Below are positions 7,954-35,587 of a stretch of 64,000 nt of DNA, piece by piece. A program made the position numbers and the translations under genes. Each line of letters starts with the position of its first letter. The stretch's first letter is position 1. This DNA is from Escherichia coli (lineage in GTDB: Bacteria > Pseudomonadota > Gammaproteobacteria > Enterobacterales > Enterobacteriaceae), in the NCBI RefSeq assembly GCF_044324875.1, contig NZ_CP172185.1. One strand, 5' to 3'. The notes beneath the pieces are model-generated. The model made no database searches, was not told the DNA's origin, and saw only the letters and a list, made by a program, of their open reading frames with translations.

Positions 7954-8517
<564 letters not shown>

Positions 8518-8524
8518 TCTGATT

Positions 8525-8550: not shown

Positions 8551-8556
8551 AACAGG

Positions 8557-10637: not shown

Positions 10638-10755
10638 TAGGTTTATCTCTTACGGGATTACGTCTTAAACAAGCATGAAAAAATAGCGTGCGCAAAAGTC
10701 GTTCTTTGCCTAAAATATCGCTATATATGGCAATATATAGCGAATGAGGTGAACG

Positions 10756-11043
10756 ATGAATAACCATTTTGGTAAAGGCTTAATGGCGGGATTAAAAGCA
10801 ACGCATGCCGACAGTGCGGTTAATGTGACAAAATACTGTGCCGATTATAAACGCGGTTTTGTATTAGGCTACTCACACCGGATGTACGAAAAGACCGGAG
10901 ATCGCCAGCTTAGCGCCTGGGAAGCGGGTATTCTGACGCGCCGCTATGGACTGGATAAAGAGATGGTAATGGATTTCTTTCGTGAGAATAATTCCTGTTC
11001 TACGTTGCGCTTTTTTATGGCCGGTTATCGCCTCGAAAATTGA
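10756..11043 (+). CDS. yghW: small protein of unknown function (DUF2623-type)
   Basis: 95-aa [30 protein letters not shown]...; position upstream of hybO as in K-12. Confidence 0.75.
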
Positions 11044-11231
11044 TCAAACATACGTATTATCTTGCTTTAATTAATTACACTAATGCTTCTTCCCTTCGTT
11101 TTAGCGCCCCGCCGCAGTATCATGATATCGATAACCATAATAAATGTGTGGTAAATGGCGCATCGATCGCATTATTGATTTTGCGATTGAGGCAAAATAT
11201 ATGCCAGGTCTTCGCAACGGAATAACTATAA
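11044..11231 (+). promoter_or_regulatory. hyb operon promoter/control region
   Basis: 188-bp AT-rich non-coding interval immediately upstream of hybO; inference from position only. Confidence 0.4.
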
Positions 11232-12350: not shown

Positions 12351-12352
12351 CC

Positions 12353-14507: not shown

Positions 14508-16207
14508 GCCAGAGAATTACTATTGATCCGGTAACCCGTATTGAGGGGCATTTACGCATCGATTGCGAAATCGAAAATGGCGTCGTTTCGAAAGCATGGG
14601 CTTCCGGTACCATGTGGCGCGGCATGGAAGAGATCGTGAAAAACCGCGATCCGCGCGATGCATGGATGATTGTGCAACGTATCTGTGGCGTATGTACTAC
14701 CACTCACGCGCTGTCTTCCGTTCGTGCGGCAGAAAGTGCGCTGAATATCGACGTTCCGGTTAACGCGCAATACATCCGTAACATCATTCTGGCTGCGCAC
14801 ACCACGCATGACCATATCGTTCATTTCTATCAACTTTCGGCGCTGGACTGGGTGGATATCACTTCTGCACTGCAAGCTGACCCAACCAAAGCCTCCGAAA
14901 TGCTGAAAGGCGTTTCGACCTGGCATCTGAACAGTCCGGAAGAGTTCACTAAAGTTCAGAACAAGATCAAAGATCTGGTTGCCAGCGGTCAGTTGGGAAT
15001 TTTCGCCAATGGCTACTGGGGTCACCCGGCGATGAAACTGCCGCCGGAAGTGAACCTGATTGCGGTAGCGCACTACCTGCAGGCGCTGGAGTGCCAGCGT
15101 GACGCTAACCGCGTCGTGGCGCTGCTGGGCGGTAAAACGCCGCACATTCAGAACCTGGCAGTAGGTGGGGTCGCTAACCCGATCAACCTCGACGGTCTGG
15201 GCGTGCTGAATCTTGAGCGTCTGATGTACATCAAGTCCTTCATCGACAAGCTGAGCGACTTTGTTGAGCAGGTTTATAAGGTTGATACCGCGGTTATCGC
15301 CGCGTTCTACCCGGAATGGCTGACGCGCGGTAAAGGTGCGGTGAACTACCTGAGCGTGCCGGAATTCCCGACCGACAGTAAAAACGGCAGCTTCCTGTTC
15401 CCGGGCGGCTACATTGAGAATGCGGATCTGTCCTCGTATCGTCCGATCACTTCTCATTCCGATGAATACCTGATCAAAGGCATTCAGGAAAGCGCGAAGC
15501 ACTCCTGGTATAAAGACGAAGCGCCGCAGGCACCGTGGGAAGGTACCACCATTCCGGCTTATGATGGTTGGTCTGACGACGGTAAATACTCCTGGGTGAA
15601 ATCACCGACTTTCTACGGCAAAACGGTAGAAGTGGGGCCGCTGGCTAACATGCTGGTGAAACTGGCGGCAGGTCGCGAATCTACCCAGAATAAACTGAAT
15701 GAAATCGTTGCGATTTATCAGAAACTGACTGGCAACACGCTGGAAGTGGCGCAGCTGCACTCCACGCTGGGCCGTATTATTGGTCGTACCGTTCACTGCT
15801 GCGAATTGCAGGATATCCTGCAAAATCAATACAGTGCACTGATCACCAATATCGGCAAAGGCGATCACACCACCTTCGTGAAACCGAACATTCCGGCAAC
15901 GGGTGAGTTCAAAGGTGTTGGCTTCCTCGAAGCGCCGCGCGGTATGCTCTCTCACTGGATGGTGATCAAAGACGGTATCATCAGCAACTACCAGGCAGTT
16001 GTTCCATCAACCTGGAACTCTGGCCCGCGTAACTTCAATGATGACGTCGGTCCTTACGAGCAGTCGTTGGTGGGTACACCGGTTGCTGATCCGAATAAAC
16101 CGCTGGAAGTGGTGCGTACCATTCACTCCTTCGATCCGTGCATGGCCTGTGCGGTACACGTAGTGGATGCCGACGGCAACGAAGTGGTTTCAGTGAAGGT
16201 TCTGTAA
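14504..16207 (+). CDS. hybC: hydrogenase 2 [NiFe] large subunit
   Basis: 567-aa ORF; N-terminal RICGVCTTTH and C-terminal DPCMACAVH Ni-binding motifs, with a C-terminal extension for HybD cleavage. Confidence 0.95.
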   Translation: MSQRITIDPVTRIEGHLRIDCEIENGVVSKAWASGTMWRGMEEIVKNRDPRDAWMIVQRICGVCTTTHALSSVRAAESALNIDVPVNAQYIRNIILAAHTTHDHIVHFYQLSALDWVDITSALQADPTKASEMLKGVSTWHLNSPEEFTKVQNKIKDLVASGQLGIFANGYWGHPAMKLPPEVNLIAVAHYLQALECQRDANRVVALLGGKTPHIQNLAVGGVANPINLDGLGVLNLERLMYIKSFIDKLSDFVEQVYKVDTAVIAAFYPEWLTRGKGAVNYLSVPEFPTDSKNGSFLFPGGYIENADLSSYRPITSHSDEYLIKGIQESAKHSWYKDEAPQAPWEGTTIPAYDGWSDDGKYSWVKSPTFYGKTVEVGPLANMLVKLAAGRESTQNKLNEIVAIYQKLTGNTLEVAQLHSTLGRIIGRTVHCCELQDILQNQYSALITNIGKGDHTTFVKPNIPATGEFKGVGFLEAPRGMLSHWMVIKDGIISNYQAVVPSTWNSGPRNFNDDVGPYEQSLVGTPVADPNKPLEVVRTIHSFDPCMACAVHVVDADGNEVVSVKVL

Positions 16208-16701
16208 TGCGTATTTTAGTCTTAGGGGTTGGCAATATTTTGCTGACCGATGAAGCCATCGGTGTGCGGATTGTCGAAGCGTTAGAGCAACGATATATTC
16301 TGCCGGATTATGTTGAGATCCTCGATGGCGGCACGGCGGGAATGGAGCTGCTTGGCGACATGGCAAATCGCGATCATCTGATCATTGCGGATGCCATTGT
16401 GTCGAAGAAGAGCGCGCCGGGAACGATGATGATCCTGCGGGATGAAGAAGTTCCGGCGTTGTTTACCAACAAAATCTCTCCGCATCAGCTTGGCCTGGCC
16501 GACGTATTGTCGGCCCTGCGCTTCACCGGTGAGTTTCCGAAAAAGCTGACCCTGGTCGGCGTGATCCCGGAATCGCTGGAGCCACACATCGGCTTAACGC
16601 CGACGGTTGAAGCAATGATTGAACCTGCGCTTGAGCAGGTTCTGGCTGCGCTGCGCGAATCAGGCGTGGAAGCCATCCCACGGGAGGCGACTCATGACTG
16701 A
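16207..16701 (+). CDS. hybD: hydrogenase 2 maturation endopeptidase
   Basis: Start MRILVLGVGNILLTDEAIGVR (codon 24 of track ORF 16138..16701), 164 aa; ATG overlaps hybC stop. Confidence 0.9.
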   Translation: MRILVLGVGNILLTDEAIGVRIVEALEQRYILPDYVEILDGGTAGMELLGDMANRDHLIIADAIVSKKSAPGTMMILRDEEVPALFTNKISPHQLGLADVLSALRFTGEFPKKLTLVGVIPESLEPHIGLTPTVEAMIEPALEQVLAALRESGVEAIPREATHD

Positions 16702-17182
16702 AGAGATAGCAGGTTTCCAGACCTCCCCGAAGGCGCAAGTACAGGCAGCTTTTGAAGAAATTGCCCGGCGTTCGATGCATGATCTCTCTTTTCTGCATCC
16801 TTCAATGCCGGTGTATGTTTCTGACTTTACGCTGTTCGAAGGTCAGTGGACGGGGTGTGTGATCACCCCGTGGATGCTGAGTGCAGTTATCTTCCCCGGC
16901 CCGGATCAACTCTGGCCGCTGCGCAAAGTGAGTGAAAAAATTGGTCTGCAACTGCCGTATGGCACCATGACCTTTACCGTTGGCGAACTGGACGGTGTTT
17001 CGCAATACCTCTCCTGCTCGCTGATGTCGCCGCTTTCGCACAGCATGTCGATTGAAGAGGGCCAACGCCTGACGGATGACTGCGCACGAATGATCCTTTC
17101 GCTGCCAGTCACGAATCCGGATGTACCACACGCAGGGCGTCGCGCCCTGCTGTTTGGCCGCAGGAGTGGCGAAAATGCATGA
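16694..17182 (+). CDS. hybE: hydrogenase 2-specific chaperone
   Basis: Start MTEEIAGFQTSPKAQ (codon 26 of track ORF 16619..17182), 162 aa. Confidence 0.88.
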   Translation: MTEEIAGFQTSPKAQVQAAFEEIARRSMHDLSFLHPSMPVYVSDFTLFEGQWTGCVITPWMLSAVIFPGPDQLWPLRKVSEKIGLQLPYGTMTFTVGELDGVSQYLSCSLMSPLSHSMSIEEGQRLTDDCARMILSLPVTNPDVPHAGRRALLFGRRSGENA

Positions 17183-17516
17183 GTTGTCGCTTTGCCAGAG
17201 CGCCGTTGAAATTATCCAACGGCAGGCGGAGCAGCACGATGTTAAGCGCGTCACCGCCGTGTGGCTGGAAATTGGCGCGCTCTCCTGCGTTGAGGAGAGC
17301 GCCGTCCGTTTTAGTTTTGAAATTGTCTGCCACGGAACGGTGGCGCAAGGGTGCGATTTACATATCGTCTATAAACCCGCCCAGGCCTGGTGCTGGGATT
17401 GCAGCCAGGTGGTGGAGATTCATCAGCACGATGCGCAGTGTCCGCTCTGTCATGGCGAGCGGTTGCGTGTCGATACCGGCGATTCGCTGATCGTCAAAAG
17501 TATTGAAGTTGAATAA
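17175..17516 (+). CDS. hybF: hydrogenase nickel-incorporation protein (HypA paralogue)
   Basis: Start MHELSLCQSAVEII (codon 19 of track ORF 17121..17516), 113 aa; CxxC...CxxC zinc motif. Confidence 0.9.
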   Translation: MHELSLCQSAVEIIQRQAEQHDVKRVTAVWLEIGALSCVEESAVRFSFEIVCHGTVAQGCDLHIVYKPAQAWCWDCSQVVEIHQHDAQCPLCHGERLRVDTGDSLIVKSIEVE

Positions 17517-17528
17517 CCGGAGTTAACA

Positions 17529-17777
17529 ATGTGTATTGGCGTTCCAGGCCAGGTGCTGGCTGTCGGTGAGGATATTCACCAGCTTGCGCAGGTTGAAGTA
17601 TGTGGTATCAAGCGCGACGTGAATATCGCCCTGATTTGTGAAGGTAACCCTGCCGATCTGCTGGGCCAGTGGGTGCTGGTACACGTCGGATTTGCCATGA
17701 GCATCATCGACGAAGATGAAGCCAAAGCCACATTAGACGCGCTGCGCCAAATGGATTACGACATTACCAGCGCGTGA
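17529..17777 (+). CDS. hybG: hydrogenase maturation factor (HypC paralogue)
   Basis: 82-aa ORF beginning MCIGVPGQV (the conserved MC(L/I)(G/A)(L/V)P HypC N-terminus). Confidence 0.9.
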
Positions 17778-22616: not shown

Positions 22617-23309
22617 CTAGTGATAACCACGCGCGGTCATAAAATCCGTAATCGCTTTTTCTGCATCAACCAGCACCTTTTCCAGTGGCTGATTGGCATC
22701 GATATCAACCAGTTGTGCACCACCAAAGGTTAACTGTGGCGTTATTGCAATCTTCCTCGCCAGCGATTCCCGTTTATGGTCGGGTTTACGCGCGCAGGCA
22801 ACTTCAAGGTCAACATTGAGTTTGATGACCAGATCAGGTTTATGGCTCGCCATCCAGTGAAACGCTTTACGTTCCTGGCTTGCCAGCCATGAGACAAACC
22901 GGCCGCCTTCAACGTTAGGCGGGAACACTGTACCATCGTAAGCGCCAGGAATTTGGTCCTGAGGATAACGGTCGGTTAGAACAATTAACCCGCGACGACG
23001 ACAGGCAAGCATATGACGAAAGCGCAGTAAGCGACGGGCGACAAACGCTGTAATTACCAGCGCCGGAACAGGGCCAGGCAATTTTTTTGCTGTTTTCACC
23101 TGATTTCGTTCAATTGTTTTATGTAAGGATTTTCCCATCAACGGTAATTTTGTCACTGCACGACCGACATTTCCGGCCTGTTTTCCTAAATGAACTCTTT
23201 CGGCTGCACCATATTTTTCGACAACGGTAATGAGATGTTCACACACCGTTGACTTGCCTGAACCATCGCTACCAATAACGGCAATTAATGGAGGTGTTAT
23301 TGACTGCAT
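22617..23309 (-). CDS. yghT: P-loop NTPase/kinase-like protein of unknown substrate
   Basis: 230-aa ORF; Walker [10 protein letters not shown]; shares DRYPQ and ARKPDH motifs with the two proteins below. Confidence 0.85.
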
Positions 23310-23482: not shown

Positions 23483-24196
23483 GTGAATCAACGTAATATG
23501 TCAATAATTAATTCCACGCCAGTGCGTGTTATTGCCATTGTAGGATGTGATGGTTCAGGTAAATCGACCCTCACGGCAAGCCTGGTAAATGAACTGGCAG
23601 CAAGAATGCCAACAGAACACATTTATCTCGGGCAATCGTCCGGGCGAATTGGCGAATGGATTTCACAGCTCCCTGTTATTGGCGCACCTTTTGGGCGTTA
23701 TCTGCGAAGTAAAGCGGCACATGTGCACGAAAAGCCCTCAACACCGCCTGGCAATATTACTGCGCTGGTTATCTATCTGCTTTCCTGCTGGCGGGCGTAT
23801 AAGTTTCGCAAAATGTTGTGTAAAAGCCAGCAAGGCTATCTGCTCATCACCGACCGCTACCCGCAGGTTGAAGTGCCGGGTTTTCGCTTTGATGGCCCGC
23901 AATTGGCAAAAACCACGGGCGGTAACGGTTGGATAAAAATGTTAAGGCAGCGCGAGCTGAAGCTGTACCAATGGATGGCGTCTTATTTGCCCGTATTGTT
24001 GATTCGTCTTGGCATTGATGAACAAACGGCGTTTGCGCGTAAACCTGACCACCAACTGGCGGCGTTACAGGAAAAAATCGCCGTTACGCCGCAACTGACA
24101 TTCAATGGCGCAAAGATCCTTGAACTGGATGGTCGGCAACCAGCCGATGAAATTATGCAAGCGTCACTACGCGCAATTCACGCCGCGCTTTCCTGA
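23483..24196 (+). CDS. yghS: P-loop NTPase/kinase-like protein (paralogue of YghT/YghR)
   Basis: 237-aa ORF (GTG start as printed; alternative ATG 15 nt downstream at MSIINSTP); Walker A GCDGSGKST. Confidence 0.85.
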   Translation: MNQRNMSIINSTPVRVIAIVGCDGSGKSTLTASLVNELAARMPTEHIYLGQSSGRIGEWISQLPVIGAPFGRYLRSKAAHVHEKPSTPPGNITALVIYLLSCWRAYKFRKMLCKSQQGYLLITDRYPQVEVPGFRFDGPQLAKTTGGNGWIKMLRQRELKLYQWMASYLPVLLIRLGIDEQTAFARKPDHQLAALQEKIAVTPQLTFNGAKILELDGRQPADEIMQASLRAIHAALS

Positions 24197-24227
24197 TCAC
24201 CAAAATGGATAGGGGATGATTTAACGA

Positions 24228-24986
24228 ATGGATGCACTACAAACACAAACTGTTAATAGTACAACCGCGCCGCAGCCCAACTACATTCCGGGGCTGATTG
24301 CGGTGGTCGGGTGTGATGGCACCGGTAAATCCACGCTGACCACCGACCTGGTGAAATCGCTGCAACAACACTGGCAAACCGAGCGCCGCTATCTGGGGCT
24401 GCTCTCCGGCGAAGACGGCGACAAAATCAAACGATTGCCGTTGGTTGGCGTCTGGCTGGAACGGCGACTGGCGGCCAAATCCTCGAAAACCCAAAGCATG
24501 AAAACCAAATCTCCAGCGCTATGGGCGGCGGTGATTATGTACTGCTTCTCGCTGCGAAGAATGGCGAATCTACGCAAGGTTCAGCGACTGGCGCAAAGTG
24601 GCGTTCTGGTGGTCAGCGATCGCTTCCCGCAGGCTGAAATTTCGGGCTTTTATTATGACGGACCGGGGATCGGCGTCGAACGTGCGACCGGGAAAATCAG
24701 CATGTTTCTGGCGCAGCGCGAACGGCGTTTATACCAAAAAATGGCGCAATACCGTCCTGAATTAATCATTCGTTTGGGGATTGATATTGATACTGCCATC
24801 TCCCGCAAGCCTGACCATGACTATGCCGAGCTGCAGGACAAAATCGGCGTCATGTCGACGATTGGCTATAACGGCACAAAAATTCTTGAGATTGATTCCA
24901 GAGCGCCCTACAGCGAAGTGCTGGAACAGGCACAGAAGGCGGTTTCTCTGGTTGCCATCGTTTCTGACCGCCGAAGTTTAACTTAA
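24228..24986 (+). CDS. yghR: P-loop NTPase/kinase-like protein (paralogue of YghS/YghT)
   Basis: 252-aa ORF; Walker A GCDGTGKST, DRFPQ, SRKPDH. Confidence 0.85.
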   Translation: MDALQTQTVNSTTAPQPNYIPGLIAVVGCDGTGKSTLTTDLVKSLQQHWQTERRYLGLLSGEDGDKIKRLPLVGVWLERRLAAKSSKTQSMKTKSPALWAAVIMYCFSLRRMANLRKVQRLAQSGVLVVSDRFPQAEISGFYYDGPGIGVERATGKISMFLAQRERRLYQKMAQYRPELIIRLGIDIDTAISRKPDHDYAELQDKIGVMSTIGYNGTKILEIDSRAPYSEVLEQAQKAVSLVAIVSDRRSLT

Positions 24987-25031: not shown

Positions 25032-26381
25032 TTGGCGGGTTTTAACATCAAACATTGGTTTGCAGATGGCGCGTTTCGCACCATTATTCGCAATAGCGCC
25101 TGGTTAGGCTCCAGTAATGTCGTGAGCGCCTTGCTGGGTCTGTTGGCGCTCTCGTGTGCCGGTAAAGGGATGACGCCCGCCATGTTTGGCGTACTGGTGA
25201 TTGTGCAATCGTACGCCAAGTCGATCAGCGATTTTATTAAGTTTCAGACATGGCAGTTGGTGGTGCAGTACGGAACACCAGCATTAACCAACAATAATCC
25301 ACAGCAATTCCGCAATGTCGTCTCATTTTCCTTCTCGCTGGATATCGTCAGCGGCGCGGTGGCGATTGTCGGCGGCATTGCCTTACTCCCTTTTCTTTCC
25401 CATTCATTAGGTCTGGATGACCAAAGCTTTTGGCTGGCAGCGCTGTATTGCACGCTCATTCCTTCAATGGCTTCCTCCACGCCGACCGGCATTCTGCGTG
25501 CGGTAGATCGCTTCGACTTAATTGCTGTACAGCAGGCGACGAAACCTTTTCTGCGCGCAGCGGGGAGCGTCGTTGCCTGGTATTTTGACTTTGGTTTTGC
25601 GGGTTTTGTTATTGCCTGGTACGCCTCGAATCTTGTTGGCGGCACCATGTACTGGTGGTTTGCCGCACGTGAATTACGCCGCAGAAATATCCATAACGCG
25701 TTCAAATTGAATCTGTTTGAGTCTGCCCGACACATCAAAGGCGCGTGGAGTTTTGTCTGGTCAACCAACATTGCCCATTCCATCTGGTCGGCGCGTAATT
25801 CGTGCAGCACAGTGTTGGTGGGGATCGTGTTAGGACCCGCTGCCGCCGGGTTATTTAAAATCGCCATGACATTCTTCGACGCCGCCGGAACGCCAGCGGG
25901 TTTACTGGGCAAAAGTTTTTACCCAGAGGTGATGCGTTTAGATCCGCGTACCACCAGACCGTGGTTGTTAGGCGTGAAGTCAGGTTTACTGGCGGGCGGA
26001 ATCGGTATTCTGGTGGCGCTCGCGGTGTTGATCGTCGGCAAGCCGCTCATTTCGCTGGTGTTTGGCGTTAAGTATCTCGAAGCGTATGACCTGATTCAGG
26101 TGATGCTGGGCGCAATTGTGATCTCGATGCTGGGCTTCCCTCAGGAGTCATTGCTATTGATGGCGGGAAAACAGCGCGCTTTTCTCGTGGCGCAAACCAT
26201 CGCCTCAATCGGCTACATCGTATTGCTGTTCATGTTCTGTCATCTGTTTGGCGTGCTGGGGGCTGCATTTGCTTACTTCGGTGGGCAATGTCTGGATGTG
26301 GTGTTCTCGCTAATTCCGACCTTAAAGGCATTTTTTCAGCGCCATTCCTTGCTTTATAACTCAGCCGGAGAGAAATCCTGA
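25032..26381 (+). CDS. yghQ: Wzx/MurJ-like (MOP superfamily) polytopic membrane protein, putative lipid-linked substrate flippase
   Basis: Track ORF is 449 aa with a TTG start; first in-frame ATG about 46 codons in (MTPAMFGVLV). Longer than the 355-aa K-12 YghQ I remember. Start uncertain. Confidence 0.75.
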   Translation: MAGFNIKHWFADGAFRTIIRNSAWLGSSNVVSALLGLLALSCAGKGMTPAMFGVLVIVQSYAKSISDFIKFQTWQLVVQYGTPALTNNNPQQFRNVVSFSFSLDIVSGAVAIVGGIALLPFLSHSLGLDDQSFWLAALYCTLIPSMASSTPTGILRAVDRFDLIAVQQATKPFLRAAGSVVAWYFDFGFAGFVIAWYASNLVGGTMYWWFAARELRRRNIHNAFKLNLFESARHIKGAWSFVWSTNIAHSIWSARNSCSTVLVGIVLGPAAAGLFKIAMTFFDAAGTPAGLLGKSFYPEVMRLDPRTTRPWLLGVKSGLLAGGIGILVALAVLIVGKPLISLVFGVKYLEAYDLIQVMLGAIVISMLGFPQESLLLMAGKQRAFLVAQTIASIGYIVLLFMFCHLFGVLGAAFAYFGGQCLDVVFSLIPTLKAFFQRHSLLYNSAGEKS

Positions 26382-27217
26382 TGATGAGAAAATATTTCCC
26401 GCTTGAGGCGAGCGAGCGTCTATTTGTTGCGATTGAAGAAGATGATGTTGTTGATGCACAGGTCAGTTTGCCGCCGACTATCGCACTAAGTTGTACCACC
26501 GAAATCATCCATGATAATTACGCGTTATGCCTGCAATTCTGGCTCAATGGCGTCAATCGCCAGGAGTTACTGCGTTTAATATGCAAACAGGCCAAAGGCG
26601 ATGAGCTGACTGCTGATGAGCGCAAACAATTTAAATACATGCGAGCGCGCTACAAGCACCTGCGTTTTGCGCAACGGCTGTATTTAAAAAAGCATCAGGC
26701 CGGATTTTTATTCGGCAAAACGACCGTTTTTTTGGGGCGTTTTCAGGACGGCTTTCGTAACGGTAAGAAAAATATTGTGTCGTATTACGGCAACCTGTTA
26801 CGGGTTTATTTAAGCTCTCCGGTCTGGTCGTTGGTGAACTATTCATTACGCCATAGCCAGTTAGAAAGCGTAAGCGGTTTTATTGCCTATCGGCAAAAGC
26901 AAATGCATACCCTGAAAGAGATAATTGCCAAACCGCGACTAACTGGCAGGGAATTTCATGATGTGCGAAAAATCATCAGCCAGCAGGTTTCTTATTACGA
27001 CACCTTAAGATCGCTTGATCCTGAAAATAAAGAGGCGTTACTGATTTCCCGTTTTCTCGCCGCCATTAATGGTCTGATGGGGGATAAGCACGACGACATG
27101 GTGGCGGATGATATGGAAAACCGCCAGTCGTATGATGCACCGGTGGCGCTGGATAGCGATATTCGCCAGCGTTTAGAACTGCTGATTTCGCGTTTCCCAC
27201 TCTATCCGGAGCAATAA
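26381..27217 (+). CDS. hypothetical soluble protein, 278 aa, basic and predicted helical
   Basis: ATG overlaps yghQ stop (ATGA) with GGAGAGAAA Shine-Dalgarno; no family recognised. Confidence 0.6.
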   Translation: MMRKYFPLEASERLFVAIEEDDVVDAQVSLPPTIALSCTTEIIHDNYALCLQFWLNGVNRQELLRLICKQAKGDELTADERKQFKYMRARYKHLRFAQRLYLKKHQAGFLFGKTTVFLGRFQDGFRNGKKNIVSYYGNLLRVYLSSPVWSLVNYSLRHSQLESVSGFIAYRQKQMHTLKEIIAKPRLTGREFHDVRKIISQQVSYYDTLRSLDPENKEALLISRFLAAINGLMGDKHDDMVADDMENRQSYDAPVALDSDIRQRLELLISRFPLYPEQ

Positions 27218-27777
27218 TGCCATCTCGTTGGATTTTCGCTCTGATCATCGCACTCTTAGCGCCAGGCGCGGTGGCACACAATTTCGTCACTGGCAAAACG
27301 GTTACCCCTGTTTATATCCAGGAAGGCGGTGAGTTGCTTCTGAAAAGCGACGACGAAATTCACTACCAAAAGTGGAACAGCACACAGCTGGCGGGAAAAG
27401 TTCGCATTATTCAGTATATCGCCGGGCGTAAGTCGGCGAAGAAAAAGAACTCACTGTTAATTAAAGCGGTTGAAGCGGCAAACTTTCCGCAGGATCGTTT
27501 TCAGCCCACCACCATTGTGAACACCGATGATGCCATTTTTGGTACTGGCTATTTTGTCGTTGGCAAAATCGAAAAAAATAAACGCCGCTATCCGTGGGCG
27601 CAATTCGTTATTGACGGCAATGGACAGGGACGCGTTGCCTGGCGGTTGCCGGAGCAGAGTTCAACCATTCTGGTGCTGAATAAAGACGGGCAAATTCAGT
27701 GGGCAAAGGACGGCAGCCTGACGCCGGAAGAGGTAGATCATGTCATTGCGCTGGCGCAGAAACTGATCAATGAATAA
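27217..27777 (+). CDS. secreted/periplasmic protein, YtfJ-like, 186 aa
   Basis: N-terminal signal peptide MPSRWIFALIIALLAPGAVA; start overlaps previous stop (TAATG); resemblance to YtfJ is from memory. Confidence 0.55.
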   Translation: MPSRWIFALIIALLAPGAVAHNFVTGKTVTPVYIQEGGELLLKSDDEIHYQKWNSTQLAGKVRIIQYIAGRKSAKKKNSLLIKAVEAANFPQDRFQPTTIVNTDDAIFGTGYFVVGKIEKNKRRYPWAQFVIDGNGQGRVAWRLPEQSSTILVLNKDGQIQWAKDGSLTPEEVDHVIALAQKLINE

Positions 27778-27807: not shown

Positions 27808-28878
27808 ATGAAGCTGGTTGAACACTACATCATGCGTGGTACGCGCCGTCTGGTGTTGATTATCGTCGGTTTTCTGATCTTTATTTTCGCCAGCTACTCC
27901 GCACAGCGTTATCTGACCGAAGCGGCAAATGGGACATTAGCTCTTGATGTTGTGCTGGATATCGTTTTCTACAAAGTGCTGATTGCACTGGAGATGTTGT
28001 TACCTGTTGGACTGTATGTGTCAGTTGGCGTGACGCTAGGGCAGATGTATACCGATTCGGAAATTACCGCTATCTCTGCGGCGGGGGGCAGTCCGGGACG
28101 CTTGTACAAAGCCGTTCTTTATCTGGCGATACCGCTAAGTATTTTTGTCACCCTTCTGTCGATGTATGGTCGTCCGTGGGCTTATGCGCAGATTTATCAA
28201 CTGGAGCAACAGTCACAGTCGGAGCTGGATGTTCGCCAGTTGCGGGCAAAGAAATTTAACACTAACGATAACGGACGAATGATCCTTTCCCAGACGGTTG
28301 ATCAGGATAATAATCGCCTGACTGACGCGCTGATTTATACTTCTACTGCCAATCGAACCCGCATTTTCCGCGCCCGTTCGGTTGATGTGGTTGACCCATC
28401 TCCCGAGAAACCGACCGTTATGTTGCACAACGGGACAGCCTATCTTCTCGATCATCAGGGGCGTGACGACAACGAACAGATCTACCGTCATCTGCAATTA
28501 CATCTGAATCCGCTGGATCAAAGCCCTAACGTCAAACGCAAAGCGAAATCGGTCACGGAGCTGGCGCGCTCCGTCTTTCCAGCCGATCATGCCGAACTGC
28601 AATGGCGACAAAGCCGTGGCCTGACAGCATTGTTGATGGCGCTGCTGGCCATTTCATTAAGTCGGGTAAAACCGCGGCAAGGGCGATTTTCAACATTATT
28701 GCCACTGACGTTGCTGTTTATTGCCATTTTTTATGGCGGCGACGTCTGCCGTACGCTGGTGGCTAACGGCGCGATTCCCCTCATTCCTGGTTTGTGGTTA
28801 GTACCCGGACTCATGCTAATGGGCCTGCTGATGCTGGTCGCACGCGACTTCTCTTTGCTGCAGAAATTTTCCCGATGA
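27808..28878 (+). CDS. YjgP/YjgQ-family permease (LptF-like paralogue)
   Basis: 356-aa ORF with N-terminal TM cluster, long periplasmic middle region and C-terminal TM helices, the LptF/LptG architecture. Confidence 0.7.
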   Translation: MKLVEHYIMRGTRRLVLIIVGFLIFIFASYSAQRYLTEAANGTLALDVVLDIVFYKVLIALEMLLPVGLYVSVGVTLGQMYTDSEITAISAAGGSPGRLYKAVLYLAIPLSIFVTLLSMYGRPWAYAQIYQLEQQSQSELDVRQLRAKKFNTNDNGRMILSQTVDQDNNRLTDALIYTSTANRTRIFRARSVDVVDPSPEKPTVMLHNGTAYLLDHQGRDDNEQIYRHLQLHLNPLDQSPNVKRKAKSVTELARSVFPADHAELQWRQSRGLTALLMALLAISLSRVKPRQGRFSTLLPLTLLFIAIFYGGDVCRTLVANGAIPLIPGLWLVPGLMLMGLLMLVARDFSLLQKFSR

Positions 28879-29954
28879 ATGTTTTCAGTCGCTATTTAAT
28901 CCGTCATCTCTTTCTCGGTTTTGCCGCCGCCGCAGGGCTATTGCTGCCGCTTTTTACCACCTTCAACCTGATTAACGAACTGGATGATGTCAGCCCGGGT
29001 GGTTATCGCTGGACTCAGGCGGTGCTGGTGGTGCTGATGACCTTACCGCGCACACTGGTCGAACTTTCGCCGTTTATCGCATTATTGGGAGGGATTGTTG
29101 GCCTGGGGCAGTTATCGAAAAACAGTGAGCTTACCGCCATTCGCAGCACGGGGTTTTCTATCTTCCGTATTGCACTAGTGGCGCTGGTTGCCGGGATATT
29201 TTGGACTGTTTCGTTAGGCGCGATAGATGAGTGGGTGGCGTCGCCATTGCAGCAACAGGCGCTGCAAATCAAATCGACTGCCACCGCGTTGGGGGAGGAC
29301 GATGACATTACCGGCAATATGCTTTGGGCCAGGCGCGGTAATGAATTTGTGACGGTGAAATCGCTGAACGAGCAGGGCCAGCCTGTGGGCGTGGAGATAT
29401 TTCATTATCGCGACGATCTCTCGCTCGAATCCTACATTTTTGCACGCAGTGCCTCCATTGAAGACGACAAAACGTGGATCCTGCATGGTGTGAATCATAA
29501 AAAATGGTTGAATGGCAAAGAAACGCTGGAAACATCAGATAATCTTGCCTGGCAATCGGCCTTCACCAGTATGAATCTTGAAGAGTTATCGATGCCGGGA
29601 AATACTTTTTCTGTCCGTCAACTTAATCATTACATCCATTATTTGCAGGAAACTGGGCAACCCAGCAGCGAATACCGCCTTGCACTGTGGGAAAAACTGG
29701 GACAACCCATCCTGACCCTGGCGATGATTTTGCTGGCTGTGCCGTTTACCTTTAGTGCCCCGCGTTCGCCTGGGATGGGTAGCCGTCTCGCTGTAGGCGT
29801 CATCGTGGGCTTACTTACCTGGATCAGCTATCAAATCATGGTCAATCTGGGATTGCTATTTGCGTTGAACGCACCTGTTACCGCGCTCGGTTTACCGGTA
29901 GCGTTTGTGCTGGTGGCGTTGAGCCTGGTGTATTGGTATGACAGACAACATTAA
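28875..29954 (+). CDS. YjgP/YjgQ-family permease (LptG-like paralogue)
   Basis: Track ORF 28794..29954 is over-extended; start MNVFSRYLIRHLFLGF overlaps the upstream stop (ATGA), giving 359 aa with LptG-like topology. Confidence 0.7.
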   Translation: MNVFSRYLIRHLFLGFAAAAGLLLPLFTTFNLINELDDVSPGGYRWTQAVLVVLMTLPRTLVELSPFIALLGGIVGLGQLSKNSELTAIRSTGFSIFRIALVALVAGIFWTVSLGAIDEWVASPLQQQALQIKSTATALGEDDDITGNMLWARRGNEFVTVKSLNEQGQPVGVEIFHYRDDLSLESYIFARSASIEDDKTWILHGVNHKKWLNGKETLETSDNLAWQSAFTSMNLEELSMPGNTFSVRQLNHYIHYLQETGQPSSEYRLALWEKLGQPILTLAMILLAVPFTFSAPRSPGMGSRLAVGVIVGLLTWISYQIMVNLGLLFALNAPVTALGLPVAFVLVALSLVYWYDRQH

Positions 29955-29988
29955 ACCCGCCGTGGCGCAACACCACAGCGGGCTCACA

Positions 29989-31161
29989 TTACTGCTTCAG
30001 AGTAGCGAACGCTTGAATGATGGCATCAATTTGCTCACGACTGTGGGCAGCGTTTACGCTACAGCGCAGCAGCGTGATGCCTGCAGGCGCGGCAGGTGGC
30101 AGGATAAGATTCACATAAACGCCCAGCGAAATAAGCTCGCGCCAGATGCGTAAACCTTCCTCTTTCGAACCGATTATTACTGGCACTACCGGGCTAATAT
30201 GTGAACTTAACTCATAACCCAGTTTTTGCAGACCGTCATACAGATGGTTGGCATTATCCATCAGCTTTTGCCGCAACTCTGGTTGTGTAGCAATGGTTCT
30301 TAACGACGAGCGCACGGTCGCAATGCAGGACGGAGAAGGAGAGGCGGTAAAAATATACGGGCGGCTGCCGTAGCGCAGCACTTCCATCGCTTCCGAACCG
30401 ACAGCAAAACCGCCAATCGAGGCCAGACTTTTACTGAAAGTACCAACGATAATATCCACATCATCTTCAACGCCAACGGCTTCAGCCAGTCCGCGCCCCG
30501 TTGCGCCTAACACGCCAAACGAATGCGCTTCATCGACAATCAAATAACCACCGAGACGACGTTTGATATCAACAATTTCCGCCAGCGGCGCAACGTCACC
30601 GAGCATACTGTAGATGCCTTCAACGATGATAATCGCCTCTTTTGCCCGTTCACCGAGGCGAACCATGCGCCGTTCCAGATCTTTAGCATCGTTATGGCGG
30701 AAACGAATAATTTCCGCGCCACCGAGAGAACAGGCGTCATAAATACTGGCGTGGCTGTCGGCATCCAGTAACACCACGGCGTTATGGTCGGCAAGTGCGC
30801 TGATGACGCCTAAATTAGCGGTATAACCGGTTGAAAAAACGATAGCGGTAGGGCGATTAAAAAACTCGGCGATCTCTTTCTCTAACGCCAGATGCGGCGC
30901 ATAACTGCCGTTTGCCATACGAGAACCGGTGGTGCCGGTGCCTTGGGCCGCTAACGCTGCCTGACCTTCGGCGATGGCATCATGATTGAAGGTTAATCCG
31001 AGATAATTATTGGTCCCGGCCAGAATCACTTTTTTATTGCCGATCCGGCCTTCGGTGGCGGAATACACTTCATCAATACAGGTACCAAACGGCGTTAACC
31101 CGTTGTCACTAAATTGCAGTCGCTCGCCAGCAAGACGCGCATATTTATCGTATAGCCCCAT
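29989..31161 (-). CDS. PLP-dependent alpha-oxoamine synthase, serine-palmitoyltransferase-like
   Basis: 390 aa; motifs DEAHSFG and VGTFSKSLASIGGF (PLP lysine about residue 244, codon near 30430..30432). Confidence 0.8.
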   Translation of the reverse strand: MGLYDKYARLAGERLQFSDNGLTPFGTCIDEVYSATEGRIGNKKVILAGTNNYLGLTFNHDAIAEGQAALAAQGTGTTGSRMANGSYAPHLALEKEIAEFFNRPTAIVFSTGYTANLGVISALADHNAVVLLDADSHASIYDACSLGGAEIIRFRHNDAKDLERRMVRLGERAKEAIIIVEGIYSMLGDVAPLAEIVDIKRRLGGYLIVDEAHSFGVLGATGRGLAEAVGVEDDVDIIVGTFSKSLASIGGFAVGSEAMEVLRYGSRPYIFTASPSPSCIATVRSSLRTIATQPELRQKLMDNANHLYDGLQKLGYELSSHISPVVPVIIGSKEEGLRIWRELISLGVYVNLILPPAAPAGITLLRCSVNAAHSREQIDAIIQAFATLKQ

Positions 31162-31409
31162 TATTTATTCTCCAGCCATGGAAGTAGTGTTTCCATTAAT
31201 TGCGCAGGGGTTTTGACATCCAGCAGAATATTAATAGGAATGGAAATATCGAATCTGTCTTCCAGCATCATTAAGAGATCCATCACTTTGATCGACTCCA
31301 GGCCAAGATCGTTGACGAGATCGCTGTCGGGCTTAATTTCCACACCGTTTTCGACCAAATCCTGTAAACAGGAAAGGATGTAATCCATTACTATTTCACG
31401 ATTTACCAT
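31161..31409 (-). CDS. acyl carrier protein (dedicated, 82 aa)
   Basis: Small acidic protein with DLGLESIKVMDL (candidate phosphopantetheine serine); stop overlaps the downstream synthase start. Confidence 0.7.
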   Translation of the reverse strand: MVNREIVMDYILSCLQDLVENGVEIKPDSDLVNDLGLESIKVMDLLMMLEDRFDISIPINILLDVKTPAQLMETLLPWLENK

Positions 31410-31440: not shown

Positions 31441-32355
31441 TCAAAATAGCCCGTTGCGTAATGCGTGTTCCAGGCTAATCCCGGGAAACCAATTAATATC
31501 TTCAGAAATACGGTTATTACTTGCTGACCAGTCGGCGTGGGTTAATTCACGGATTTTCGAGCGGGTCAGCATAGGTTCTTTACCTGCCAGGCGACTCAAC
31601 GTGGTACTGATATCCGCAAGGCAGGTGAGTACCGACAGAGGAATACCAACCATTCGAACGGAACCACAACGGGCGTCGGCGGCAAGCTGTCTTACGCGTT
31701 GCCAGTCATAGCCGCCGGCGACGCCATCGCATAATTCATAGGTTTGCGTCTGTACAGTTTCGGCGCTTAACCACTGCCCCACGGCTTGCGCGAAATCGGT
31801 GACGTGCAGGAAAGAGAGCTGTGTATCTGGCGCACCAAGTCGTGGCAGTAGGCCGCGCAGCATCCAGTCAAACAGCGGTTTTAACTCTTTATCGCCGGGA
31901 CCATACACGGCTGTCGGGCGAAAAATGCCCAGCGTAATTTCGTCAGCCATTGCGGTCAGTCGTTGTTCGGCGACGTGTTTGGAATTTGCGTACCAGGAGA
32001 GTTCGGGATGGCGCGCCGCCAGCGAAGAGATAAACAGAAAACGTTGGCAAAAGCCGCTCTCTTTTGCCGCTTGCATCAGGCGCAGGCTGCCGTCAACGTT
32101 ACAGCGGGTAAAAATCTCTTCTTTGTGTCCGCGCACTTGTCCGGCGCAATGGACCACCGCGCTGGCTCCGGCAACCAGTTCGCTAAGCGAATGTGTATCT
32201 TCCAGCGAACCGCGCACCCAGATGAGATTATCATTGACGTGAGCGCGGGCAGTACGCGTCAATGCGCGAACGTGAAAGCCGCGGGCGAGCAGGTTATCGA
32301 TAATATATTTACCGATAAACCCGGTAGCGCCCGTCACCGCGACAGTTTGATTCAT
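31441..32355 (-). CDS. NAD(P)-dependent epimerase/dehydratase-family (extended SDR) oxidoreductase, putative keto-reductase
   Basis: 304 aa; Rossmann VTGATGFIGKYI, catalytic YANSK; start overlaps upstream ligase stop by 4 nt. Confidence 0.75.
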   Translation of the reverse strand: MNQTVAVTGATGFIGKYIIDNLLARGFHVRALTRTARAHVNDNLIWVRGSLEDTHSLSELVAGASAVVHCAGQVRGHKEEIFTRCNVDGSLRLMQAAKESGFCQRFLFISSLAARHPELSWYANSKHVAEQRLTAMADEITLGIFRPTAVYGPGDKELKPLFDWMLRGLLPRLGAPDTQLSFLHVTDFAQAVGQWLSAETVQTQTYELCDGVAGGYDWQRVRQLAADARCGSVRMVGIPLSVLTCLADISTTLSRLAGKEPMLTRSKIRELTHADWSASNNRISEDINWFPGISLEHALRNGLF

Positions 32356-34073
32356 GCCAGGGATTCCTGCACATGAAGGCTTGCAGCATAAGCCTTCTGA
32401 TAGCGTTTTTTCGCTTCCGCACGGGCAGGCTTGCCGGAGGACGTTCGGGGAATACTGTGGGGCGGCAACAGATCGATAGCCGCGGTCACGCCAAATTCGC
32501 TTTGGATCCGTGCTGCCAGCGCGTGGATAAGCTGCCCGCGACGTTCTTCATCGCTGATCCGACACTGGATCTGCAAAATGATTTTTTCCTGGGCGGTAAC
32601 AAAAGCAATCGCATCGCCAGAATGAATTTCCGGTTCCTGTTCCGCAATATATTCAATATCTTGCGGCCAGATATTGCGGCCACGAATAATAATCAGATCT
32701 TTAATGCGTCCGGTGACATACAGATAACCGTCCAGCAGATAACCGAGGTCGCCGGTGTCTAACCAGCCCGTCGCGGCAATCTCGTCTTGTGAAATCTGGT
32801 CGCCAAAGTAACCGCTCATCAGGCTAGGGCCGGAGATGCAAATATGGCCTACCACACGTTCCGCGACAGGTATACCTGCTTCATTGCGGATTTCAATGCC
32901 ATGTTCCGGCAACGCTTTACCGCAGTTGACGAAAGTCGATACGGCGCGTGTTTCAGCATCCGGCGCGACGGCTTTGCCCTGATATTCGAGGATGTCGCGA
33001 TCCACTTCGTTAACCACAACCCCGGAAGCTTCATCAGAGAAGCTGACAGCCAGCGCATTTTCTGCCAGTCCGTAGCACGGCATGAACGTTTTATCGTCAA
33101 AGTTAACCTGACGAAAACATTCAGCGAATTGATGGAGTTGTTCTGCGGAGATCGGTTCTGCGCCAATACCAGCGACGCGCCAGCAGGAAAGATCCAGTTC
33201 AGCGAGATCTTTTTCATTCACGCGGCGCTGGCACAATTCATAGCCAAACGGCGGCGCAACGGAAACGGTGCCGCGATTTTTACTGATCAATTTAAGCCAT
33301 TGCAGAGGACGCATGGCAAAATCCTGAGTGCGCAAATAATCTACTGAGAGCTGCGTGGCGACGGGGGTCAGGAGAAAGCCGACCAGTCCCATATCATGGT
33401 AGAAAGGCAGCCAGGAGACGCAGCGGTCGCCAGGGCGTAATTTAATGCCATCGTGGCTTATAGCACGTAGATTAGCCATCACTTCGCGATGGGTGATAAT
33501 GACGCCACGGGGAAAACGGGTGCTGCCGGAGGTGTACTGGAGGTAGGCGATATCGTTCGGAACTGGACGCTGGAGTGCAACATCGGCTTCCGGTAATGCC
33601 TTAAACCAGGCGTGGCTTAAAACATGTAATTCGGGTTTGTTATGCGTCGCGGCATTGACCAGCGGTAACCACTCATCACCAGTGATAATGGCTGCGGGCT
33701 GGCAACTTGCCAGTAAACCCTGCAGTTTGGCGCTCCAGGAATCCCGCTGACCGACGCCCATTGGAATCGCCAACGGGACGGCGACTAAGCCGGCATACTG
33801 GCAGGAAAAAAAAGCCTCTACGAACCCGCTACTGGTTTCGGCAATCAGCGCCACGCGATCGCCTTTTTTCAGGTTCAGCGATAACAACCGCTTCGCACCA
33901 GCTTCGGCACGCGCTTTTAACGTCTGATATTCCAGTTGATCTTCAAGTTGGCAACGTCTGTCATAAAAATTCATTCCGGCGCTACTCAGAGCGGCGTAGT
34001 CCAAAGCATCAACCAGCGTTGGAAAATCGGCATAGCGCATAGGTAGGGAATGCGTAAAGATTTTATTAGACAT
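32352..34073 (-). CDS. fatty acyl-AMP ligase / acyl-ACP synthetase-type adenylating enzyme
   Basis: Track ORF 32352..34100 (582 aa); AMP-binding motif YTSGSTRFPRGV. Start uncertain (candidates at 34100, 34073, 34040); 34073 ATG chosen. Confidence 0.75.
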   Translation of the reverse strand: MSNKIFTHSLPMRYADFPTLVDALDYAALSSAGMNFYDRRCQLEDQLEYQTLKARAEAGAKRLLSLNLKKGDRVALIAETSSGFVEAFFSCQYAGLVAVPLAIPMGVGQRDSWSAKLQGLLASCQPAAIITGDEWLPLVNAATHNKPELHVLSHAWFKALPEADVALQRPVPNDIAYLQYTSGSTRFPRGVIITHREVMANLRAISHDGIKLRPGDRCVSWLPFYHDMGLVGFLLTPVATQLSVDYLRTQDFAMRPLQWLKLISKNRGTVSVAPPFGYELCQRRVNEKDLAELDLSCWRVAGIGAEPISAEQLHQFAECFRQVNFDDKTFMPCYGLAENALAVSFSDEASGVVVNEVDRDILEYQGKAVAPDAETRAVSTFVNCGKALPEHGIEIRNEAGIPVAERVVGHICISGPSLMSGYFGDQISQDEIAATGWLDTGDLGYLLDGYLYVTGRIKDLIIIRGRNIWPQDIEYIAEQEPEIHSGDAIAFVTAQEKIILQIQCRISDEERRGQLIHALAARIQSEFGVTAAIDLLPPHSIPRTSSGKPARAEAKKRYQKAYAASLHVQESLA

Positions 34074-34444
34074 ATACACCACGAAAAAATTGGATATCAA
34101 AAATAAAATGACAATAATGCGGTGGATTATATAGGCATAAAAGATAAATGAGATAGTATTTTCATCAGTGTGAAAATGAACATTGATTTAAATAATGAGT
34201 TTGAGTTTTTTTGTTTTTATTGTGAATGATATTTAATTTATGAATGTATTAAGAAGAAGCCTTGTCCGGTCGCCTTAAATCGACAAAAGGCATTGTGGCG
34301 CTTCTGTGTAGTCTCTGACCTTATCGTAATCATTAATAAATACTATTTATTCGTCGTTTGTATTCATTGGGTTGATTATTAAGGTGCCGTTCGTTGCTGT
34401 TGCAACCTGTTTGTCACCGTTAATTATTTGTTACCCACAGAACT
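34074..34444. promoter_or_regulatory. AT-rich divergent control region between the ligase operon and yghO
   Basis: About 370 bp non-coding and strongly AT-rich, between divergently oriented starts. Confidence 0.45.
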
Positions 34445-35587
34445 ATGGAATGCGATCTGCTGATGATTAAAATTGAAAAAGTAATTAATAAAAATGACCT
34501 TAAGGCATTTATCGCTTTTCCGTCATCACTTTATCCCGACGATCCAAACTGGATACCCCCTTTATTCATTGAACGCAACGAGCATTTGTCTGCGAAAAAT
34601 CCGGGGACGGACCATATCATCTGGCAGGCGTGGGTGGCAAAAAAAGCAGGGCAGATAGTTGGGCGTATTACCGCGCAAATCGATACCTTGCACCGCGAGC
34701 GTTACGGCAAAGATACCGGTCATTTCGGCATGATTGACGCCATTGATGATCCGCAGGTTTTTGCCGCGTTGTTTGGCGCAGCGGAAGCGTGGTTGAAGTC
34801 ACAAGGTGCAAGTAAGATCAGCGGTCCTTTCAGCCTGAATATCAATCAGGAAAGCGGATTACTGATTGAAGGTTTCGATACACCACCCTGTGCGATGATG
34901 CCACACGGCAAACCGTGGTATGCCGCGCATATTGAACAATTGGGTTATCACAAAGGCATTGATTTACTGGCGTGGTGGATGCAGCGAACCGATCTCACTT
35001 TCTCTCCGGCCCTAAAAAAACTGATGGATCAGGTGCGCAAAAAAGTGACCATTCGCTGCATCAATCGCCAGCGGTTTGCCGAAGAGATGCAGATCCTGCG
35101 TGAGATTTTCAACTCTGGCTGGCAGCATAACTGGGGATTTGTGCCGTTTACCGAACATGAGTTCGCGACTATGGGCGATCAGCTTAAGTACCTGGTGCCG
35201 GACGATATGATCTACATCGCCGAGATTGATTCTGCACCCTGTGCGTTTATTGTCGGCTTACCGAACATCAACGAGGCGATTGCCGATCTGAACGGATCGC
35301 TCTTTCCCTTCGGCTGGGCAAAATTGCTGTGGCGTTTAAAAGTCAGCGGTGTGCGAACTGCGCGAGTACCGCTGATGGGCGTGCGGGACGAGTATCAGTT
35401 TAGCCGCATCGGCCCGGTGATTGCGCTGTTATTGATTGAAGCCTTACGCGATCCGTTTGCCCGCCGGAAGATCGATGCGCTGGAAATGTCATGGATCCTC
35501 GAAACCAATATAGGCATGAATAACATGCTGGAACGCATTGGGGCGGAGCCGTACAAGCGTTACCGATTGTATGAAAAGCAGATTTAA
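34445..35587 (+). CDS. yghO: YghO-family protein, predicted acyl-CoA N-acyltransferase-like fold (intact here)
   Basis: 380-aa ORF MECDLLMIKIEKVINKNDLKAFIAFPSS... adjacent to glcC as yghO is in K-12; fold assignment is from memory. Confidence 0.65.
   Translation: MECDLLMIKIEKVINKNDLKAFIAFPSSLYPDDPNWIPPLFIERNEHLSAKNPGTDHIIWQAWVAKKAGQIVGRITAQIDTLHRERYGKDTGHFGMIDAIDDPQVFAALFGAAEAWLKSQGASKISGPFSLNINQESGLLIEGFDTPPCAMMPHGKPWYAAHIEQLGYHKGIDLLAWWMQRTDLTFSPALKKLMDQVRKKVTIRCINRQRFAEEMQILREIFNSGWQHNWGFVPFTEHEFATMGDQLKYLVPDDMIYIAEIDSAPCAFIVGLPNINEAIADLNGSLFPFGWAKLLWRLKVSGVRTARVPLMGVRDEYQFSRIGPVIALLLIEALRDPFARRKIDALEMSWILETNIGMNNMLERIGAEPYKRYRLYEKQI

Follow-up and report, generated by a model that had tools for sequence, protein, structure and literature searches.

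Which lipid would a second pair of LptF/LptG-type permeases serve in Escherichia coli, whose canonical LptF and LptG (YjgP/YjgQ) are the permeases of the LptB2FGC extractor of lipopolysaccharide (LPS)? The question is raised by two genes at positions 27808 to 29954 of a 64,000-nucleotide stretch of the E. coli contig NZ_CP172185.1 (RefSeq assembly GCF_044324875.1), hereafter called the window. From the sequence alone, an original prediction had described them as two adjacent YjgP/YjgQ-type permease genes next to lipid-synthesis genes, and had suggested that they extract or export a lipid other than LPS with the help of LptB or another partner. We refer to the genes as lptF2 and lptG2. By analogy with a system described in Caulobacter, we put the probability at roughly 75% that they encode the membrane subunits of a second LptB2FG-type (type VI ATP-binding cassette, ABC) extractor, which would be dedicated to the ceramide-based lipid of the adjacent genes spt, acpR, cerR, and aasR, together with yghO. 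The idea of sphingolipid export is itself already known: it was published as a hypothesis in 2024 (PMC11324152), and Caulobacter experiments together with a drawing of the E. coli locus are contained in a 2026 preprint (Uchendu, Isom and Klein, bioRxiv 10.64898/2026.04.12.717747).

Both genes lie on the plus strand and start with ATG, with lptF2 (27808..28878) encoding 356 and lptG2 (28875..29954) encoding 359 amino acids. The stop codon of lptF2 and the start codon of lptG2 share the letters ATGA and hence overlap by 4 nt, as had been noted before (the junction reads CCCGATGAATG). A GTG at 28794 would extend the lptG2 reading frame upstream; the ATG at 28875 is backed by the RefSeq annotation and by the alignment to LptG. 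The permease family is defined by PF03739, within which the profiles TIGR04407 and TIGR04408 separate LptF-type from LptG-type proteins. LptF2 reached 318 bits on TIGR04407 (curated NCBI equivalog cut-off 230) and LptG2 304.5 bits on TIGR04408 (cut-off 240), whereas the matches to the profile of the opposite subunit amounted to only 64 and 86 bits. Solved structures in the PDB aligned end to end with both proteins, i.e., LptF chains with LptF2 (E = 8e-32) and LptG chains with LptG2 (E = 7e-42).

Neither an unrelated fold nor disrupted transmembrane helices, which the original prediction had named as outcomes that would speak against it, were found. Hydropathy profiles of LptF2 and LptG2 showed three N-terminal hydrophobic segments, a periplasmic domain, and a C-terminal hydrophobic block, which is the layout of K-12 LptF and LptG. 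An AlphaFold2 model of LptF2 (predicted local distance difference test score 86, predicted template modelling score 0.77) contained helices at residues 3–138 and 240–355 and strands at residues 150–232, and its best structural matches in the PDB were LptF chains (9dok_F at a TM-score of 0.78). The arrangement of six transmembrane helices (3 + 3) around a periplasmic beta-jellyroll was thus seen for LptF2 in the model and the hydropathy profile, and for LptG2 in the hydropathy profile and the full-length LptG alignment. Compared with Escherichia whittamii, the ratio of nonsynonymous to synonymous substitution rates (dN/dS) was 0.07 for lptF2 and 0.05 for lptG2 (overall span 0.05–0.09), and the full-length 356-amino-acid LptF2 formed one 90%-identity cluster of 5440 member sequences. 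The pair in the window is 99.8% identical to that of E. coli strain CB6837. LptF2 and LptG2 are therefore true, intact members of the LptF/LptG family and not remnants. Shortened LptF2 variants occur in Shigella, e.g., forms of 238 amino acids. Some database entries, mostly single assembly sequences, join LptF2 to a YtfJ domain (PF09695), to PitB (PF01384), or to an AMP-binding domain (PF00501); these look like frameshifts, deletions, or gene-calling merges and not like genuine domain fusions, and the PitB-LptF2 entries suggest strains in which the segment from yghT to the ytfJ-like gene is deleted.

The pair is also distinct from the essential lptFG, as had been stated. Global identity to the K-12 counterparts was 30% between LptF2 and LptF and 28% between LptG2 and LptG, and canonical lptF and lptG of K-12 sit at the pepA locus. 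Canonical and second LptFG appear to coexist in one genome, since in two E. coli records, both of which also carry yghO, two LptG-like places each were detected, and at least one of the two was 100% identical to K-12 LptG.

To which genes is the pair linked beyond E. coli? A scan of a genome collection with an alignment of ten LptF2-type sequences returned 80 loci from Enterobacterales, Pseudomonas, Azotobacter, Nitrococcus, Geobacter, Nitrospirales, Nitrosomonas, and Methylothermaceae. An LptG2 homologue adjoined LptF2 in all 80. Among the 50 loci with full 10-kb flanks, every one contained at least one ceramide gene, 44 contained spt, and 38 contained all five ceramide genes; the ten loci without any ceramide gene all have shortened flanks. 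The co-occurrence analysis that had been proposed as a check thus places the pair within 10 kb of ceramide genes in several phyla. No pepA was found near the pair in any of the 80 loci. Conversely, a pepA-type aminopeptidase gene lay near canonical lptFG in K-12 and in all five canonical loci that we added (found with a PepA probe in four and by annotation in P. aeruginosa), and none of these five yielded a match when probed for spt and yghO.

Outside Enterobacterales, the usual order is spt-acp-cerR-fatty acyl-AMP ligase (FAAL) gene on the minus strand, followed by yghO, lptF2, and lptG2 on the plus strand, and yghO-lptF2-lptG2 share one strand in Pseudomonas, Azotobacter, Geobacter, Nitrospirales, and Nitrosomonas. 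In Nitrosomonas, yghO is the only ceramide gene adjacent to the pair, which agrees with the published split of its sphingolipid locus (PMC9386255). Downstream of the pair, P. putida has CDP-alcohol-transferase-like and lipid-kinase-like genes that resemble CpgA and CpgB. Pseudomonas and Azotobacter furthermore carry a gene for a 575-amino-acid fused MsbA/HepA-like ABC exporter just downstream of spt (positions 1644–3371 of the P. putida stretch). Its Caulobacter counterpart is CC_1166, described as a "potential flippase"; in Enterobacterales, MOP-type YghQ would take this role. Judged from these gene contents, two different flippase families appear to serve one step of the pathway.

If LptF2 and LptG2 form an extractor, which ATPase would drive it? 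The original prediction had noted that no cognate ATPase is encoded nearby, and this holds for the complete window: an LptB probe detected no ABC nucleotide-binding domain anywhere in its 64 kb. The probe was validated as LptB at 539 bits on NF008144. We also considered YghR, YghS, and YghT, which have a P-loop and approximately the size of LptB, as a local ATPase and rejected them, as they show weak dTMP-kinase-like matches and were not picked up by the LptB probe. Likewise rejected as LptB-like were the ABC matches near the Pseudomonas loci, which are the 575-amino-acid MsbA-like exporter downstream of spt, a candidate flippase. All 81 pairs of the E. coli-type clade that were compared have the coupling-helix glutamate that docks on LptB (LptF E84, LptG E88). 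With 12 of 21 residues identical between paralogue and canonical counterpart, the coupling helices rank among the best-conserved windows of 21 residues, against 28–30% identity overall. The other top-conserved stretch is the LptF segment 275–306 around a PRQGR motif, which by inference lies in a cytoplasmic loop. Conservation of the coupling helices and of the PRQGR segment fits a cytoplasmic partner shared with the canonical pair.

Experimental precedent comes from Caulobacter. Its proteins CC_1168, CC_1156, and CC_1155 were named LptC2, LptF2, and LptG2, and a role in bringing phosphosphingolipids to the outer membrane was proposed (PMC11324152). Deletion of Caulobacter lptC2, lptF2, and lptG2 succeeded only in an spt or cpgB mutant background, i.e., in cells without anionic sphingolipid, and upon purification LptF2 and LptG2 were recovered together and along with the single LptB (10.64898/2026.04.12.717747). 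The same work reports homologues in Sphingomonas and E. coli UTI89, with the UTI89 locus drawn in its Figure 2B and homologous genes coloured alike. The E. coli pair resembles the Caulobacter one in that it lies inside a ceramide locus, appears to be a second copy beside a canonical pair, and has no LptB gene in its locus. By this analogy, and with the linkage to ceramide genes and the invariant coupling-helix glutamate, the earlier suggestion of a different lipid exported with borrowed LptB gains support.

The lipid-synthesis genes mentioned in the original prediction correspond to the bacterial ceramide pathway, as judged from activities and named homologues reported for E. coli BL21 (PMC9386255). 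In the RefSeq annotation of a matching genome, the left part of the locus comprises pitB, yghT on the minus strand, and then yghS, yghR, yghQ, a gene for a 278-amino-acid protein, a ytfJ-family gene, lptF, and lptG on the plus strand; the right part comprises spt, acp, an NAD-epimerase-family gene, and a fatty acyl-AMP ligase gene on the minus strand, followed by yghO on the plus strand and glcC. The serine palmitoyltransferase gene spt (29989..31161, minus strand) matched NF047599 with 600 bits against a cut-off of 500 and lies 35 nt downstream of lptG2 in convergent orientation. Between the two genes lies a G+C-rich hairpin of 16 bp (29952..29986), the strongest terminator-like site of a consensus scan over 22.4–36 kb, which is likely a bidirectional terminator. 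Next on the minus strand follow acpR for a specialised acyl carrier protein (31161..31409; RefSeq annotation), cerR for a reductase of the NAD-dependent epimerase/dehydratase family (31441..32355; weak matches to short-chain dehydrogenase/reductase and epimerase profiles, all under cut-off), and aasR for a FAAL or acyl-AcpR synthetase (32352..34076, with the RefSeq start; NF006624, 873 bits). On the plus strand, yghO (34445..35587) encodes a candidate bacterial ceramide synthase (bCerS, an N-acyltransferase), for which homology to CC_1154 was named in PMC9386255; neither Pfam nor NCBIfam provided a family for it.

According to Padilla-Gomez et al. (2022; PMC9386255), Spt (ECD_02854), AcpR, and AasR of BL21 jointly make 3-oxo-sphinganine. 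AcpR (ECD_02853) bears 4'-phosphopantetheine and serves Spt, AasR (ECD_02851) acylates AcpR, ECD_02852 was named as homologue of Caulobacter CerR (CC_1164), and yghO as homologue of the N-acyltransferase CC_1154 (PMC9386255).

The genes on the other side of the pair are found with it in Enterobacterales. From yghS to lptG2, all genes form a same-strand run with gaps of at most 45 nt or overlaps, and lptF2 and lptG2 are its last genes. The run opens with yghS and yghR (23483..24986, plus strand), whose products are P-loop dTMP-kinase-like proteins (weak TIGR00041 matches), and a third P-loop paralogue, yghT, is divergently oriented (22617..23309, minus strand; RefSeq annotation and a weak dTMP-kinase-like match). 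The three paralogues have 230–252 amino acids; they accompany the locus in Enterobacterales and occur at 36–43% identity in some Pseudomonas. We regard them as candidate head-group kinases. They are followed on the plus strand by full-length yghQ for a MOP/Wzx-like candidate flippase (25032..26381; weak MOP flippase match), by the 278-amino-acid protein gene (26381..27217; dN/dS 0.03–0.08), and by the ytfJ-family gene directly upstream of lptF2 (27217..27777; TIGR01626, 213 bits). The latter two are connected to each other and to lptF2 by overlapping or short junctions and are co-conserved with the pair in Enterobacterales only. No family match was found for the 278-amino-acid protein and no solved relative for the YtfJ-like protein, the N-terminus of which resembles a signal peptide by eye. 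As there is no LptC2 here, the YtfJ-like protein could be a putative periplasmic accessory of the exporter.

Taken together, the following sequence of steps may be envisaged. Ceramide would be built at the inner membrane and its head group then modified, with YghR, YghS, and YghT as candidate enzymes, before the lipid is flipped to the periplasmic leaflet, for which MOP-type YghQ is the candidate flippase. The LptF2-LptG2 heterodimer would take up the lipid in its membrane cavity. ATP hydrolysis by the single LptB dimer of the cell, seated on the coupling helices, would push the lipid into the periplasmic beta-jellyroll domains, from where it would be handed on towards the outer membrane, probably via the shared LptC/LptA/LptDE bridge. 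Substrate, partnership with LptB, direction of transport, and outer-membrane route are the elements of this scheme that we infer.

How widespread is the locus, and is it an island, as the original prediction had called it? The G+C content of the locus is approximately 50% and matches the flanks. A 7.7-kb segment from the 3' end of yghQ to the acyl-AMP ligase gene was found as a single chromosomal copy with 95–99% identity in 4066 of 5426 complete E. coli genomes (approximately 75%), and E. whittamii and other Enterobacterales share the gene order of the complete locus. A mobile or foreign island in E. coli was rejected, and the word does not apply. Instead, this is an ancestral chromosomal E. 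coli locus that K-12 has lost: in MG1655, IS5 (insH9) occupies the exact place of the 7.7-kb segment (positions 8147–9341 of the K-12 stretch examined). Gone from K-12 are spt, acpR, cerR, aasR, lptF2, lptG2, the ytfJ-like gene, and the gene for the 278-amino-acid protein; as IS5 replaces the segment, K-12 yghQ is a truncated gene and yghO an orphan. From the absence in K-12 and in approximately 25% of complete genomes, it follows that lptF2 and lptG2 are not essential. Elsewhere in the window, the last 2 kb (62001–64000), by synteny beyond sslE, have a G+C content of 0.40 compared to 0.47–0.58 in the rest.

Copies on plasmids were found outside E. coli. The conjugative 301-kb IncFIB plasmid NZ_CP106839.1 of Klebsiella michiganensis carries the complete enterobacterial module of 13 genes, i.e., the genes from yghT to lptG2 and from spt to the acyl-AMP ligase gene as well as yghO (positions 2554–17716 of the stretch examined), with genes for a GT2 glycosyltransferase and a diacylglycerol kinase as neighbours. 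In Rahnella and Pseudomonas, yghO plus an LptG2-like gene was found on large plasmids. The module is therefore capable of horizontal transfer, even though in E. coli it is an ancestral part of the chromosome.

Several results weigh against export of a sphingolipid by this pair. Both proteins exceed the NCBI cut-offs for LPS exporters, and contacts to the lipid A phosphates, as taken from the Shigella LptF/LptG structure (PMC6744409), have remained basic in the paralogues (LptF R33 and K317; LptG K62 and R136). No report of a native sphingolipid of wild-type E. coli was found in the literature searched, and the locus is dispensable, being absent from K-12 and about a quarter of complete E. coli genomes. 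The enterobacterial locus contains no visible homologues of CpgABC or of the MsbA-like flippase; Enterobacterales instead carry YghR, YghS, YghT, YghQ, the 278-amino-acid protein, and the YtfJ-like protein. With CpgABC and MsbA-like genes absent or replaced, head group and flippase of the enterobacterial system therefore probably differ from those of the ceramide-phosphoglycerate system. Sequence relationships to the alphaproteobacterial systems are also distant, as the E. coli-type pair is only approximately 23–26% identical to the alphaproteobacterial sphingolipid-locus proteins, and the trees described below join it to these proteins with bootstrap values of 0% for both LptF and LptG, whereas it groups with canonical beta- and gammaproteobacterial sequences at 94% for LptF and 74% for LptG.

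These values derive from neighbour-joining trees of Kimura distances with 56 sequences and 200 bootstraps. The Caulobacter pair was represented by alphaproteobacterial stand-ins from plasmid and chromid records, i.e., Roseomonas, the locus of which is syntenic with that of Caulobacter, and Sphingomonas. Canonical pairs were added from P. aeruginosa, Legionella, Neisseria, Ralstonia, and Pseudorhodobacter, the last being the one alphaproteobacterial canonical pair. In this phylogeny, which had been proposed as a check, the E. coli-type clade received bootstrap values of 90% (LptF) and 88% (LptG), and the canonical beta- and gammaproteobacterial clade 92% and 28%. Alphaproteobacterial sphingolipid-locus and canonical proteins grouped together at 80% and 41%. 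BLAST comparisons gave 84–163 bits between E. coli-type and canonical gammaproteobacterial LptF/LptG, versus 24–76 bits for the Sphingomonas and Roseomonas sphingolipid-locus proteins. Published identities of CC_1156, 24% to Avin_44330 (E = 1e-6) and 30–33% to its alphaproteobacterial counterparts, agree with a deep split between Caulobacter-type and E. coli-type LptF2. This suggests that the E. coli-type pair is sister to canonical beta- and gammaproteobacterial LptFG and not to the alphaproteobacterial sphingolipid pairs, pointing to parallel recruitment. The trees thus lean against common descent of the E. coli-type and Caulobacter-type pairs from one duplication, and we carry the Caulobacter experiments over by analogy and not by orthology.

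A tentative scenario, which we hold to be somewhat short of an even chance, would extend this further. Duplication of LptFG and recruitment of the copy to sphingolipid export may have happened at least two times, with one event in the alphaproteobacterial lineage and another close to the root of the beta- and gammaproteobacterial LptFG lineage. Together with the ceramide cluster, the second version might then have reached Geobacter, Nitrospirales, and Enterobacterales, conjugative plasmids included, and in Enterobacterales might have joined a distinct 13-gene module (with YghRST, YghQ, the YtfJ-like protein, and the 278-amino-acid protein) that would make and export a sphingolipid other than ceramide phosphoglycerate in most natural E. 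coli.

Among the alternatives, the one that survives best is that the locus is a cryptic relic, rarely or never expressed in E. coli, and that most strains make no physiological use of the pair. The loss of the locus from K-12 and approximately a quarter of complete genomes without obvious cost, the truncated variants such as the 238-amino-acid Shigella forms, and the missing literature report of a native sphingolipid are compatible with it. However, every gene of the locus is under strong purifying selection (dN/dS 0.03–0.14), the full-length form is kept in thousands of sequences, and synteny is maintained across Enterobacterales, which makes a relic unlikely.

Still less likely is that the pair exports a non-sphingolipid product of the enterobacteria-specific genes yghS, yghR, yghQ, the 278-amino-acid protein gene, and the ytfJ-like gene, so that the adjacency of spt would be incidental. 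The position of lptF2 and lptG2 at the end of the run that starts with yghS would fit such a function, as would the resemblance of YghQ to Wzx/MOP flippases of glycan-lipid pathways. Outside Enterobacterales, however, the upstream genes are absent and the pair is still found with yghO, spt, and other ceramide genes, and on the Klebsiella plasmid all 13 genes travel together.

Could the cargo be LPS after all? LptG residues K34, K40, K41, and R133, which contact the lipid A phosphates and core in Shigella, are replaced by N, D, D, and L in LptG2 across the 81 pairs, and K34 is also replaced in the sphingolipid-locus LptG of Sphingomonas and Roseomonas. We rejected N/D/D/L as a signature of sphingolipid specificity: the lysines in question are likewise missing from canonical LptG of P. 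aeruginosa, Legionella, Ralstonia, and Neisseria, and the replacements therefore set LptG2 apart from the resident E. coli LptG only. The least probable alternative, a second LPS exporter that is either redundant or devoted to an altered LPS or a variant of lipid A, can draw on the equivalog scores, the retained lipid A contacts, and the acidic end of LptG2 transmembrane helix 1, which likewise occurs in bona fide LptG of P. aeruginosa and Legionella, but it is opposed by the position beside ceramide genes in all 50 full-flank loci and never at the canonical pepA locus, by the lack of adjacent LPS biosynthesis genes, and by the exchange of four residues of the resident LptG, of which K34 is lethal when changed to E in the Shigella protein (PMC6744409).

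Dedication of the pair to a ceramide-based lipid, which we continue to prefer, would matter beyond this locus. Envelope biogenesis is studied with E. coli as the reference organism, but the K-12 strain has lost the locus, and the textbook lipid composition of E. coli omits it. Most natural E. coli carry a complete, selected set of sphingolipid-synthesis genes and, apparently, a second LptFG for extraction from the inner membrane. If this is true, one LptB ATPase, and possibly one LptC/A/DE bridge, would serve two lipid cargoes, which bears on outer-membrane homeostasis and would be relevant to the behaviour of Lpt-targeting antibiotics such as zosurabalpin-type LptB2FG inhibitors. Host interactions are concerned as well, bacterial sphingolipids being immunologically active. 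Furthermore, E. coli would be far more tractable than Caulobacter for dissecting cargo selection by LptFG-type extractors.

How does the pair compare with known systems? With LptF and LptG of E. coli itself, it shares family, fold, the adjacent coupled genes in the order F then G, the coupling-helix glutamate, and the lack of a fused ATPase. It differs by an identity of merely 30% and 28%, by its position in a sphingolipid locus rather than beside pepA, and by being dispensable. The LptFG proteins of the sphingolipid loci of Pseudomonas, Azotobacter, and Nitrosomonas (e.g., Avin_44330/44340 and Neut_1102/1103) belong to the same clade and are all linked to yghO/bCerS, with identities to the E. 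coli pair of 52–61% for Pseudomonas and Azotobacter and 31–33% for Nitrosomonas. In loci of the Pseudomonas/Azotobacter type, yghO and an NTP-transferase gene precede the pair and CpgA/B/C-like genes follow it, whereas the enterobacterial pair has been relocated across the spt operon and comes after yghS, yghR, yghQ, the 278-amino-acid protein gene, and the ytfJ-like gene. Compared with LptF2/LptG2 of Caulobacter crescentus (CCNA_01214/CCNA_01213; CC_1156/CC_1155), E. coli lacks LptC2, and the putative head-group and flippase neighbours are YghRST and YghQ in E. coli but CpgABC and an MsbA-like ABC protein elsewhere. In both organisms, a second pair without dedicated LptB lies in the ceramide locus beside bCerS, and by analogy the proposed role would be the same, i.e., the export of a sphingolipid.

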